This document shows positions 22,849 to 36,894 of a stretch of DNA of 64,000 bases, one piece after another; positions within the stretch are counted from its first letter, which is position 1; every line of letters begins with the position of its first letter. The notes below the pieces were generated by a model that was not told where the DNA came from, made no database searches, and was given only the letters and a program-made list of their open reading frames with translations. Source of the DNA: Escherichia phage vB_EcoM_JB75; sequence record MH355584.1, one strand, 5' to 3'. The position numbers and the translations under genes were made by a program.

Positions 22849-23214
22849 ATGTATACCGGTAAAAAGTATGAACTTGTTCCAAGACTTATTGATACATTTA
22901 TTAATTATCGCCCACGTTCTAATTCATCAATAGTTAAAATTATTCAAGAAAATGGCGGATGGTTTGAAGTTAAAGAAGCTTTCTTTGTTGATGGATTTAG
23001 AGTAATAAAACACATTGAATGCGCAAATGGAAAGCATTTTTACTTTAACGTTTGTGAAGACGAATTTCATTGTTTTCGCGAGTATAAAGAACCGACTTCT
23101 GAAGAAGATGGAGCCGAAGACATAGTTTCTGGCGTAACAAAAATTCACTGCGTTGTTGACGAAAACAATGTAGACGAAATCATTGAACTTTTGCGAAAAA
23201 CTTTCAAAAAGTAG
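22849..23214 (+). CDS. hypothetical protein (121 aa)
   Basis: ORF with SD gaggaaaacg. Confidence 0.55.
   Translation: MYTGKKYELVPRLIDTFINYRPRSNSSIVKIIQENGGWFEVKEAFFVDGFRVIKHIECANGKHFYFNVCEDEFHCFREYKEPTSEEDGAEDIVSGVTKIHCVVDENNVDEIIELLRKTFKK

Positions 23215-32725: not shown

Positions 32726-32729
<4 letters not shown>
32499..32729 (+). CDS. hypothetical protein (76 aa)
   Basis: ORF translationally coupled to neighbours. Confidence 0.5.
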
Positions 32730-33947
<1,218 letters not shown>

Positions 33948-33948
<1 letters not shown>

Positions 33949-34145
33949 TGGCTTGGCACCATGAAACTTGGGCTATTGTTATTGTAAATAGCGGTTTAGT
34001 TGGTACTAGTAATGGGCAATTTTGTGTATTTACTAGTGAAAATAGAGCATGGGAGGAATGCCTTAAATTAAGAGAAAAGAATCCTGATGTTGAACTAGTA
34101 GTAAAGAAAACTAAACTGCCTTTACCATGGAAAACGTATGAATAA
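33948..34145 (+). CDS. hypothetical protein (65 aa)
   Basis: ORF with TAATG overlap to pseT. Confidence 0.45.
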
Positions 34146-34338
34146 CCTAGAAAAGATTTATCGTCTTTGTGATAAAATTGAAAAAGAAAAGAAATATCTA
34201 TTTTGTCTATGGCCTATTGTTGACGGAAGAGTAGGCCTAGATGTTCTTGATTATGAAACAGAAGACAAAGTAGATGGCGCAACTTTTGATAACGCTTTGG
34301 ATGTTATTGATTGGCTTGAAGAAAATTATGTGAGGTAA
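34138..34338 (+). CDS. hypothetical protein (66 aa)
   Basis: ORF coupled to the upstream ORF. Confidence 0.45.
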   Translation: MNNLEKIYRLCDKIEKEKKYLFCLWPIVDGRVGLDVLDYETEDKVDGATFDNALDVIDWLEENYVR

Positions 34339-34340
34339 AT

Positions 34341-34616
34341 ATGTTTCCGACTTACTCTAAAATCGTAGAAGTAGTGTTTAGCCAAATTATCGCTAATAAT
34401 ATGTTTGAAAAACTTGATAACGCAGCTGAGCTTCGAATCCATGCTCAAGTGACTCATGTATTGAACACTTTGCTTCCAGACCAGGTGGATTCTGTTGCCA
34501 TCACGTTGTATCCAGGTTCCGCGCATATCATTGTCGTATTCGGTCTTGATGCTGAGCTAGTCATCAAAGGCGATATTCGCTTTGAATCTCAAACTGCGGA
34601 ATTCAAAGCGATTTAA
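34341..34616 (+). CDS. hypothetical protein (91 aa)
   Basis: ORF with SD gaggtaaat. Confidence 0.5.
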   Translation: MFPTYSKIVEVVFSQIIANNMFEKLDNAAELRIHAQVTHVLNTLLPDQVDSVAITLYPGSAHIIVVFGLDAELVIKGDIRFESQTAEFKAI

Positions 34617-34618
34617 TG

Positions 34619-34657
34619 GTTTACTTTACGGTAGAGTTGTGATATTATAGCTCTACC
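34619..34657 (+). promoter_or_regulatory. early promoter with stem-loop around the -10
   Basis: GTTTAC at 34619; inverted repeat GGTAGAG...CTCTACC brackets GATATTAT. Confidence 0.6.
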
Positions 34658-34678
34658 AAAACAAATGAGGAAATTGAA

Positions 34679-35206
34679 ATGAGCGAATGGTTTGAAGAAG
34701 ATAAGGTTTATCGCTTTAAAACTGGGTATAAAGATATTTTTAATGAAACTTGCGGGGCTAATAAACGAATTGCCCAGTTTATTGGGGAAAATTCATTTAA
34801 AGTAAAAATAGATCCTGCGAAAAATGTTATTAGCATTAAACGCGAAATTGATGACTGCTGGTATAAAGCTGTTGATGTAATGGGCGAATCCTATAAAGTT
34901 AGCCCGTTATTTTCAATTGCTTATATGTTAGAATATTCTTTTTTCGAAGAAGTTCAAAAAGATGATTCTGCCAGTAAATTTGAAATTAAAACTGATAAAG
35001 AAATTAAGTGGAAAGTAGTAGGTATTACTGGTTGTATGTTTTATATCTATGCTCAAACTGATACGAAGGAAGAAGCTAAAAATAAAGCTCTAGAATATCT
35101 TGAAGAGTATGAAGAAGGTCCGGTAATGATTACTCAAGATGCTGAATTAGTTTCTGTCAAATTAGTTAAAAACGTTGAAAGTAAGGAGCTGGGATCAACA
35201 TGCTAA
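34679..35206 (+). CDS. hypothetical protein (175 aa)
   Basis: ORF with SD gaggaaatt and an early promoter with stem-loop upstream. Confidence 0.6.
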   Translation: MSEWFEEDKVYRFKTGYKDIFNETCGANKRIAQFIGENSFKVKIDPAKNVISIKREIDDCWYKAVDVMGESYKVSPLFSIAYMLEYSFFEEVQKDDSASKFEIKTDKEIKWKVVGITGCMFYIYAQTDTKEEAKNKALEYLEEYEEGPVMITQDAELVSVKLVKNVESKELGSTC

Positions 35207-35436
35207 GTGAAAAACCAATTACTGTTAAAGAATTCCAAGAAAAAGTTAAACTATTTGCACAGGAATTAGTAAATAAGGTTTCTGAACGATTTCCTGAAAC
35301 GTCGGTTCGTGTTATTACCGAAACTCCTCGTTCAGTATTAGTAATTGTGAATCCAGGTGATGGCGATCAAATATCGCATCTTAAACTGGATTTTGATGGA
35401 TTAGTTGAAGCACAAAGGGTGTATGGCGTACTATGA
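35200..35436 (+). CDS. hypothetical protein (78 aa)
   Basis: Translationally coupled ORF. Confidence 0.5.
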   Translation: MLSEKPITVKEFQEKVKLFAQELVNKVSERFPETSVRVITETPRSVLVIVNPGDGDQISHLKLDFDGLVEAQRVYGVL

Positions 35437-35771
35437 TGAATTTAACTGATATAATTGATAATTGTCTTGAAAATGATACTGGCGATCATAGAGCGCTTGA
35501 CTCTGAAACAGCACAGTTCATTAGAATAACTTTAATGAATGACACTCTAGTGAATAGTATTCATCCTTCTGTGTATGATGCTATTATTGTGACGAAGTAT
35601 CCAGTTGAGCTTCACAAAAAGATGGTTGGCGCAATTTTTATTGATAAGAAAAACCGCTTTAAAGATGGGCAGAATATAATTAGTTCTGTTATTAAAAGTA
35701 TAACTAAACTTCGTCACGAAATTTATCGTGTTGAAACTGCTAAATCTGCTTATCTGGTGATTATGAAATGA
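35433..35771 (+). CDS. hypothetical protein (112 aa)
   Basis: Translationally coupled ORF upstream of cd. Confidence 0.5.
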   Translation: MMNLTDIIDNCLENDTGDHRALDSETAQFIRITLMNDTLVNSIHPSVYDAIIVTKYPVELHKKMVGAIFIDKKNRFKDGQNIISSVIKSITKLRHEIYRVETAKSAYLVIMK

Positions 35772-36349
35772 AAGCGAGTACAGTACTTCAAATTGCATAT
35801 TTAGTATCACAAGAATCAAAATGTTGCTCCTGGAAGGTAGGAGCAGTAATTGAAAAGAATGGACGTATTATTTCTACTGGGTATAATGGTTCACCCGCAG
35901 GGGGTGTGAACTGTTGTGATTATGCTGCTGAGCAAGGTTGGTTATTGAATAAGCCTAAACATACTATCATTCAAGGTCATAAGCCTGAATGCGTATCATT
36001 TGGTTCAACTGATCGTTTTGTCTTGGCGAAAGAACATCGTAGTGCTCACTCGGAATGGTCATCTAAAAATGAAATTCATGCTGAACTAAATGCGATTTTG
36101 TTTGCTGCACGAAATGGCTCTTCTATTGAAGGTGCTACTATGTATGTAACACTTTCTCCTTGTCCAGATTGTGCAAAAGCGATAGCTCAATCTGGTATTA
36201 AAAAGCTGGTTTATTGCGAAACATATGATAAAAATAAACCTGGCTGGGATGATATTCTGCGAAATGCAGGTATTGAAGTGTTTAATGTTCCTAAGAAAAA
36301 CTTGAATAAGTTAAACTGGGAAAATATCAACGAATTCTGTGGTGAATAA
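35768..36349 (+). CDS. cd: dCMP deaminase (193 aa)
   Basis: 193 aa; zinc-binding deaminase motifs HAELNAI and SPCPDCAKAI. Confidence 0.88.
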   Translation: MKASTVLQIAYLVSQESKCCSWKVGAVIEKNGRIISTGYNGSPAGGVNCCDYAAEQGWLLNKPKHTIIQGHKPECVSFGSTDRFVLAKEHRSAHSEWSSKNEIHAELNAILFAARNGSSIEGATMYVTLSPCPDCAKAIAQSGIKKLVYCETYDKNKPGWDDILRNAGIEVFNVPKKNLNKLNWENINEFCGE

Positions 36350-36585: not shown

Positions 36586-36894
36586 ATGAAACTGACAACT
36601 GAGCAGAAAGTAGCAATTCGTGAAATTTTGAAAACTAAATTGTCCATGGGTGTTTCAAACGTAGTTTTTGAAAAGTCTGACGGTACTATTCGTGTTATGA
36701 AAGGTACTCGCGATGCTGACTTTATGCCAACCATGCAAACTGGTAAATTGACTGAATCTACTCGGAAAGAATCTACTGATATGATTCCAGTATTTGATGT
36801 TGAACTTGGTGCATGGCGAGGTTTTTCTATTGACAAATTGATTTCCGTTAATGGTATGAAAGTTGAGCATTTGCTCCAATTTATTGGTAAATAA
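36586..36894 (+). CDS. hypothetical protein (102 aa)
   Basis: ORF coupled to the upstream ORF. Confidence 0.5.
   Translation: MKLTTEQKVAIREILKTKLSMGVSNVVFEKSDGTIRVMKGTRDADFMPTMQTGKLTESTRKESTDMIPVFDVELGAWRGFSIDKLISVNGMKVEHLLQFIGK

Follow-up and report, generated by a model that had tools for sequence, protein, structure and literature searches.

What do the genes packed between pseT and cd contribute to infection by T4-like phages? The question arises from Escherichia phage vB_EcoM_JB75 (MH355584.1), a Tequatrovirus of which a window of 64,000 nucleotides (nt) was analysed; all coordinates given here are positions of this window on its + strand. Between pseT (33043-33948) and the dCMP deaminase gene cd (35768-36349), a listing of open reading frames (ORFs) and direct reading of the sequence place six + strand ORFs. 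A preliminary description had presented them as an uncharacterised, accessory block of six coupled ORFs of 65 to 175 amino acids (aa), without recognisable motifs, partly behind an early promoter and likely to carry host-modulation functions. Coordinates and overlaps read from the sequence bear out the six coupled ORFs. The block is not anonymous, since five of them are named T4 genes and the sixth has a recognisable relative in the T4 protein GoF: the block almost certainly consists of orthologues of T4 cd.5 to cd.1 together with one gene that is not in T4. On balance, we favour the view that these six early genes, the five cd orthologues and a GoF paralogue, encode small binding proteins that matter in particular hosts.

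The cd genes of T4 in vB_EcoM_JB75

The window's + strand is the counterpart of the T4 minus strand; the T4 record (NC_000866) lists, from pseT to cd, the genes cd.5, cd.4, cd.3, cd.2 and cd.1 (T4p222 to T4p218). Their orthologues, all on the + strand, are cd.5 (33948-34145, 65 aa; Pfam PF25744 T4_Y13H, phrog_2430), cd.4 (34138-34338, 66 aa; phrog_2360), cd.3 (34341-34616, 91 aa; PF24051 DUF7355, phrog_1695), cd.2 (35200-35436, 78 aa; PF24005 DUF7320, phrog_1504) and cd.1 (35433-35771, 112 aa; phrog_2063). The PHROG families of all five Cd proteins were matched at E <= 1e-37. Gene order, orientation, lengths, junctions and the early promoter between cd.3 and cd.2 match those of T4, and protein identity ranges from 92% for Cd.2, whose N-terminus differs, to 100% for Cd.5. 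The difference from T4 lies in an extra gene of 175 aa between cd.3 and cd.2 (34679-35206, +), which profile comparisons relate to GoF. Nucleotide identity with T4 is 93.8% up to 34681 and 97.7% from 35201 onward. The 3.4-kb region around the block matches 549 phage records and is 99.3% identical to that of Yersinia phage PYps55T. The supposed lack of recognisable motifs holds only in part: three ORFs match T4_Y13H, DUF7355 and DUF7320 with scores well over the cutoffs, and a fourth is GoF-like.

The stop codon of pseT and the start of cd.5 overlap in TAATG, cd.5 and cd.4 overlap by 8 nt, and 2 nt separate cd.4 from cd.3. The 175-aa ORF and cd.2 share ATGCTAA, and the cd.2/cd.1 and cd.1/cd overlaps both read ATGA, so that the sole real intergenic gap of the block is 34617-34678. 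The ratio of non-synonymous to synonymous differences (pN/pS), calculated against T4 or phage MLF4, is 0.00-0.26 for all six ORFs and denotes purifying selection. Because of these low values and of the orthologues present in other genera, the six ORFs are real genes and not chance ORFs. The genes cd.5 to cd.1 are long annotated and uncharacterised in T4, and nothing in the block suggests a new kind of system.

Cd.4 and the dependence on the host strain

The Cd.4 protein of the window matches phrog_2360 over its full length (E 2.7e-41, positions 1-66 of 66), is 97% identical to T4 Cd.4 and is acidic, with an isoelectric point of 4.35 and a net charge of -7; no relative of it was found in Pfam or the PDB. 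What points to its role comes from published fitness screens. On E. coli K-12, T4 cd.1 to cd.5 were scored 'Not Fit' by CRISPRi-ART (PMC11879866, supplementary file 15) and 'Non-essential' by the transposon sequencing of HIDEN-SEQ, with 18/19 up to 32/32 TA sites hit (bioRxiv 10.1101/2025.11.20.689424, supplementary file 7). The supplementary tables of the HIDEN-SEQ preprint further provide conditional fitness values for other hosts, among them the uropathogenic isolates CFE299 and CFE303; all the values below come from these tables. Our other literature searches returned main texts without findings on cd.1 to cd.5, and the useful data all came from supplementary tables.

When T4 on CFE299 is compared with T4 on K-12, cd.4 is depleted with a log2 fold change (log2FC) of -2.93 (p and adjusted p = 0), the mean count dropping from 286 to 37 over 16 TA sites, and cd.5, cd.3, cd.2 and cd.1 are unaffected. 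Since significant depletion does not extend to insertions in cd.3, the next gene along, in either T4 or Bas37, polarity does not account for the cd.4 signal. The same comparison depletes pseT (log2FC -5.27), nrdC.1 (-4.80) and cef (-3.99), each with an adjusted p of 0. A second phage, Bas37, carries a putative cd.4 orthologue, bas37_0053, for which the log2FC relative to K-12 is -5.84 on CFE303 (adjusted p = 0) and -2.26 on CFE299 (p 0.01, q 0.31), without significant change on CFT073 (+0.12) or CFE331 (+0.18). These experiments make a good case for Cd.4 as a factor specific to the host strain. They lend the proposed host-modulation functions an experimental footing for cd.4 only, and such a role is plausible for the GoF-like gene.

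A step further, Cd.4 would neutralise a strain-specific host defence. We regard a counter-defence function as a serious possibility whose chances fall slightly short of even. Like NrdC.1 (anti-Septu), AdfM/Tk.4 and Dmd, Cd.4 is small, early, dispensable on K-12 and important only in particular isolates, and NrdC.1 and Bas37_0203 were themselves assigned as defence inhibitors from the same conditional behaviour. It differs from the known anti-defence proteins in having no sequence or fold relationship to them, PADLOC and Pfam giving nothing. Among selected defence systems the preprint lists Retron VI and two Septu systems for CFE299, which it pairs with nrdC.1; for CFE303 it lists Druantia III, paired with bas37_0203.

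In the chief competing explanation Cd.4 is no independent anti-defence inhibitor and instead assists tRNA repair by PseT/RnlA, the pathway encoded next to it. This explanation draws on proximity, as cd.4 directly follows pseT in Mosigvirus, Dhakavirus and Kagamiyamavirus and is one gene away from it in Tequatrovirus (with cd.5 between) and in phage VR7 (with a MobE-like gene between), and on the joint depletion of T4 pseT, cef and cd.4 on CFE299, which carries Septu twice; according to PMC13096335, this system cleaves tRNA-Tyr. We nevertheless find this explanation unlikely. The association breaks down on CFE303, where the cd.4 orthologue shows the stronger effect (q=0) whereas Bas37 pseT is not significant (log2FC -0.85, p 0.06) and cef is unaffected, and phages X20 and KPN6 keep pseT without cd.4. 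Both observations weaken the helper explanation.

The co-depletion of pseT, cef, cd.4 and nrdC.1 in the double-Septu strain CFE299 (HIDEN-SEQ supplementary file 7, Data S9) suggests that tRNA repair and tRNA maturation by T4 contribute to evading Septu.

Distribution across the Tevenvirinae

Synteny with related phages, a check proposed by the preliminary description, was assessed by comparing the pseT-cd interval in seven genomes from seven genera: T4, JS10 (Dhakavirus), VR7 (Gaprivervirus), LF82-7 (Mosigvirus), EcS1 (Kagamiyamavirus), X20 (Winklervirus) and KPN6 (Jiaodavirus). Both cd.3 and cd.2 are found in all seven. Five of the seven have cd.1 (T4, VR7, EcS1, X20 and KPN6, not JS10 or LF82-7), and five have cd.4 (T4, JS10, VR7, LF82-7 and EcS1), which outside Tequatrovirus is usually the first gene after pseT. 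Among these genomes cd.5 is restricted to Tequatrovirus, with distant copies found elsewhere by tblastn. The number of phage records detected by tblastn is 931 for cd.2, 689 for cd.4 and 563 for cd.5. The block is thus in part a conserved component of the Tevenvirinae, not hypervariable cargo, and cd.3 and cd.2 resemble core genes more than accessory ones.

Such conservation could also mean that cd.3, cd.2 and cd.1 are accessory parts of the surrounding phage nucleotide-metabolism machinery (cd, pseT) and are not directed at the host. They are kept beside cd across six or seven genera, the end of the block overlaps cd translationally, and another metabolic gene, encoding a DAHP synthase (phospho-2-dehydro-3-deoxyheptonate aldolase), occupies the same slot in three genera. 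Against this, family and PDB sequence searches disclosed no similarity of the products to any enzyme or known subunit, the three genes had no fitness effect on K-12 or the clinical isolates examined, and cd itself was dispensable in those screens. A metabolic role is quite improbable on these grounds. Clear homology to characterised housekeeping proteins, on which the idea of host-directed functions would have foundered, was likewise looked for among the six products and not found.

The interval has received other genes in related phages. Phages of Winklervirus, Kagamiyamavirus and Mosigvirus carry the DAHP synthase gene as an insertion that separates cd.2 from cd (loci L006, 3731-4747; L007, 3731-4741; L009, 3858-4850). 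In VR7 a MobE-like homing endonuclease gene stands between pseT and cd.4 (L005, 1393-2118, - strand), overlapping the 3' end of pseT, which makes the region a target for real mobile endonuclease genes. Upstream of the block, the window holds a 106-aa ORF between pseT.1 and pseT (32726-33046, +) that is not in T4 and has counterparts in JS10, VR7 and LF82-7 (E 1e-31 to 1e-48). Records of the BASEL collection label the ORF at this position 'putative homing endonuclease'; Pfam yields only a sub-threshold GapR-like match (E 0.085).

A GoF-like gene not present in T4

The extra gene corresponds to window positions 34682-35200, which T4 lacks and whose boundaries are clean. It is found at >=90% amino-acid identity in 302 phage records, including T6, RB14, RB27 and AR1, and is annotated in RB14 as RB32ORF214c; Bas37 also lacks it, judging by its gene table. 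Sequence comparisons indicate that the 175-aa ORF is very probably a new branch of the GoF family and a paralogue of T4 GoF.

Searches from the single sequence say little. A phmmer search of 1.84 billion representative proteins gave only fragments and a spurious match to an immunoglobulin-like protein with 17 repeats, and a word-indexed search gave four matches. A profile search, by comparison, gathered 51 relatives. The protein matches the PHROG goF family at E 0.005, and hhalign of a 34-sequence alignment against T4 GoF returned a probability of 82% (E 1e-5, 93 columns), compared with 0.5% for the control MotB.2. Residues 3-101 of the ORF align to residues 3-98 of GoF at about 24% identity, with a common motif FE-x-K-x-Y-x-F ... 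N ... A ... GM-x-PF. Taken in the reverse direction, T4 GoF matches the PHROG family of the 175-aa ORF (phrog_3710) at 8.1e-12 and phrog_5804 at 1.6e-5, and the proteins occupying the same slot in JS10 and VR7 match the goF family phrog_2980 at 1e-6 and 2.1e-8, respectively. By profile methods, the 175-aa ORF therefore possesses a GoF-homologous N-terminal domain.

An LSm-like family of the Tevenvirinae comprising GoF, Frd.2 as well as MotB.1 was described in 2025, with an N-terminal five-stranded bent beta-barrel (LSm/SH3-like), a linker and a variable C-terminal domain (PMC12152347). The 175-aa protein would share this arrangement of two domains and a linker and, like the family, belongs to an early gene. 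Its AlphaFold model (mean predicted local distance difference test score, pLDDT, 70) has two domains joined by a disordered linker at residues 97-107, and the protein would combine a putative N-terminal LSm/SH3-like barrel with a private C-terminal beta-beta-alpha-beta domain. A Foldseek search of viral models gave 37 matches at E <= 1e-3, all uncharacterised, mostly from T4-like phages and several per genome; FeoA and IdeR are structural neighbours. The orthologue of Frd.2 in the window (22849-23214, +; Pfam FRD2, E 6e-32) is the best non-self match of the hidden Markov model of the 175-aa family (E 0.037), which fits the published grouping. GoF, identical to ComC-alpha, has been proposed to act on RNA through mRNA stability or Rho-linked termination, and by analogy the GoF-like protein may do the same. 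The kinship has its limits: the gene occupies another slot than goF, its product is 175 aa long where GoF has 141, and its C-terminal domain is unrelated to that of GoF.

As JS10 and VR7, according to relaxed tblastn and synteny, also have homologues (some 25-30% identity) between cd.3 and cd.2, the gene looks old in the clade and lost in some lineages, T4 included, rather than newly inserted. Self-insertion of a free-standing homing endonuclease gene at the cd.3/cd.2 junction would account for the clean presence/absence polymorphism (302 of the 549 records that match the region), for the sharp boundaries relative to T4 and for the label 'putative homing endonuclease' borne by the gene in AndreasVesalius, FriedrichMiescher and PaulHMueller of the BASEL collection, and a real MobE-like endonuclease lies nearby in VR7. 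The idea is nonetheless very improbable. No GIY-YIG, HNH or other nuclease family was detected in Pfam, PHROGs, NCBIfam or PADLOC, and the ORF, for which neither a nuclease domain nor a nuclease fold was found, is not supported as a member of the GIY-YIG Seg or HNH Mob endonucleases. Its N-terminal domain is GoF-like, and the divergent homologues in the same slot in three genera, the coupling to cd.2 and a pN/pS of 0.23 point to vertical descent with loss in T4 and away from recent mobility.

Several observations surround this gene. PaulHMueller/Bas45 carries a truncated version of 85 aa (L011, 2471-2728), annotated 'putative homing endonuclease', which keeps only the C-terminal domain (residues 101-175). 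The family DUF4288, a candidate for this domain, was matched below cutoff by both the full-length protein (E 0.13) and the truncated form (E 0.0097). A 114-aa ORF from a 644-nt metagenome contig (P0004) joins a fragment of the N-terminal domain of T4 gp59 to residues 5-51 of the 175-aa protein and reflects either recombination or faulty assembly. Near the GoF-like gene, the orthologue of gene 31.1 (36586-36894, +) encodes a second small barrel, matching Pfam WYL_2 (Sm-like SH3 beta-barrel) at E 2e-20.

Cd.5, Cd.3, Cd.2 and Cd.1

Family models recognise the remaining Cd proteins far above cutoff. Cd.5 matches T4_Y13H with 108.8 bits (cutoff 27) over model positions 1-61 of 61 and phrog_2430 at E 2e-37; it shows no amino-acid difference from T4 Cd.5 and a pN/pS of 0.00-0.12. 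The start annotated in T4, an ATG at 33918, would give a protein of 75 aa; the start at 33948 is favoured because alignment to the Pfam and PHROG models sets in at residue 11-12 of this longer form. Cd.3 matches DUF7355 with 113.1 bits (cutoff 27) and phrog_1695 at E 2e-39, with a pN/pS of 0.05. Cd.2 matches DUF7320 with 115.5 bits (cutoff 27), as do all eight family members sampled, and in its single-sequence model (pLDDT 81) a single long helix (residues 9-30) lies against a set of four antiparallel strands. Cd.1 is 98% identical to its T4 counterpart and covers phrog_2063 entirely (E 4.1e-50, positions 1-112 of 112), with no relative in Pfam or the PDB. Searches of the Cd proteins against the PDB, NCBIfam and PADLOC disclosed no relative, Pfam contributing at most DUFs and T4_Y13H, and sequence searches of the PDB with single proteins and profiles gave nothing significant for any of the six products.

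The products are small, mostly acidic and cytoplasmic and would most likely bind host or phage macromolecules, to an effect felt only in particular hosts. Cd.5, Cd.3, Cd.2 and Cd.1 may accordingly be viewed as putative binding modules, and our confidence in anything beyond a putative 'small binding protein' is low. A distant paralogy of Cd.3 and Cd.1, hinted at by a weak reciprocal phmmer/BLASTP signal, was rejected at an hhalign probability of 0.7%. A very improbable alternative makes Cd.2 a DinI-like RecA modulator, after the label 'putative DinI' in phage Shinka. The two proteins are similar in size, and a helix-'FP'-strand segment of Cd.2 (residues 16-58) weakly matches the DinI profile (Pfam PF06183, E 0.036; three of the eight family members match, at best 0.0088). 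The score of 14.9 bits does not reach the 24.2 bits that Pfam requires, however, an hhalign comparison with E. coli DinI yields a probability of 2%, and the predicted helix and four strands lack the C-terminal helix of the DinI fold; membership of the DinI family is not supported.

The N-terminus of Cd.2 deserves a separate comment. Relative to window positions 35200-35240, the T4 reference contains one extra G (GTTAAAGGAATTC versus GTTAAAGAATTC; L001, 5230-5275; NC_000866, about 133229-133274), because of which T4 cd.2 is annotated from a GTG with another N-terminus (MKNRLLLKEF). The cd.2 of the window and of its relatives (most of them by one count, all by another) starts MLSEKPITV, and the re-annotated T4 of the HIDEN-SEQ preprint lists a cd.2 of 240 nt. 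The likely source of the extra G is an error in the reference or a difference between strains.

Promoter and RNA hairpins

The sole gap of the block holds an early sigma-70 promoter (34620-34648, +; TTTACT-17-TATTAT, with a TG ahead of the -10 element), equivalent to the early promoter Pe133295 annotated between cd.3 and cd.2 in T4, where the intergenic sequence of promoter and hairpin is identical. In the register of the T4 alignment, the start site of Pe133295 falls at about window position 34655. GTTTAC and the -10 element are kept in JS10, VR7 and LF82-7. Lying ahead of the last three genes, the promoter confirms that the block is partly behind an early promoter. The stem-loop that had been reported at 34619 is also present in the gap, at 34630-34657; position 34619 belongs to the -35 element.

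This stem-loop (+ strand, 12 pairs) spans the -10 element, and its 81-nt context folds at -18.4 kcal/mol (z = -3.4). As it encloses both the -10 element and the inferred start site, it could form only in read-through RNA from pseT. Across 6 sequences from four genera, 88.9% of its cells are paired (slid controls: 31-55%) and compensatory changes affect 3 pairs, a count that 84 of 500 shuffles also reach; the conservation is suggestive only. A second hairpin, a perfect 11-bp inverted repeat, occupies the last codons of cd.3 (34577-34611, +; arms 34577-34587 and 34601-34611, 100% complementary) and is followed by a T-rich stretch. Its context folds at -16.6 kcal/mol (z = -3.35), and none of 200 shuffles folds as well. 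A terminator scan did not call the hairpin at the end of cd.3 a terminator, neither hairpin is followed by a U-tract, and an Rfam search of the region matched no RNA family. Both hairpins may serve as 3' end stabilisers or partial terminators.

Expression of the block would then proceed in two groups. The genes cd.5, cd.4 and cd.3 would be read through from pseT, while the 175-aa gene, cd.2 and cd.1 would be driven additionally by the early promoter in the gap, and the stop/start overlaps would couple translation within each group.

Concluding remarks

Brought together, these elements allow a joint proposal, which we put forward tentatively. The acidic Cd.4, encoded next to pseT in at least five genera of Tevenvirinae, would inhibit a not-yet-identified E. 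coli anti-phage system present in CFE303 and CFE299 and not in K-12, CFT073 or CFE331, and the GoF-like gene would represent a fourth, fast-evolving LSm-like branch tuning the fate of RNA in a host-dependent manner.

Several points weigh against a role of these proteins in particular hosts. The orthology of bas37_0053 with cd.4 follows from gene order and a length of 201 nt, not from sequence, and is best called probable. The main text of the HIDEN-SEQ preprint never mentions cd.4, the data appearing in supplementary tables only, and its authors built a Bas37 deletion of 0053 and report no matching defence system. The conservation of cd.3 and cd.2 across genera fits a general role in infection equally well as host-specific modulation. 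Wild-type GoF is without demonstrated function, the D25Y mutant alone stabilising an mRNA.

Taken alone, the block is unremarkable: its genes entered the T4 annotation decades ago and bear the label 'hypothetical' in hundreds of genomes. Its interest lies in two of its members. The strong strain-specific phenotype of cd.4, unremarked in the tables of a 2025 preprint, turns the role of a small T4 early gene into a directly testable question. The 175-aa gene, present in 302 of 549 records and in some of them wrongly called a 'putative homing endonuclease', can be given the annotation of a GoF-family (LSm-like) protein, and this re-annotation extends a recently described family of phage proteins.

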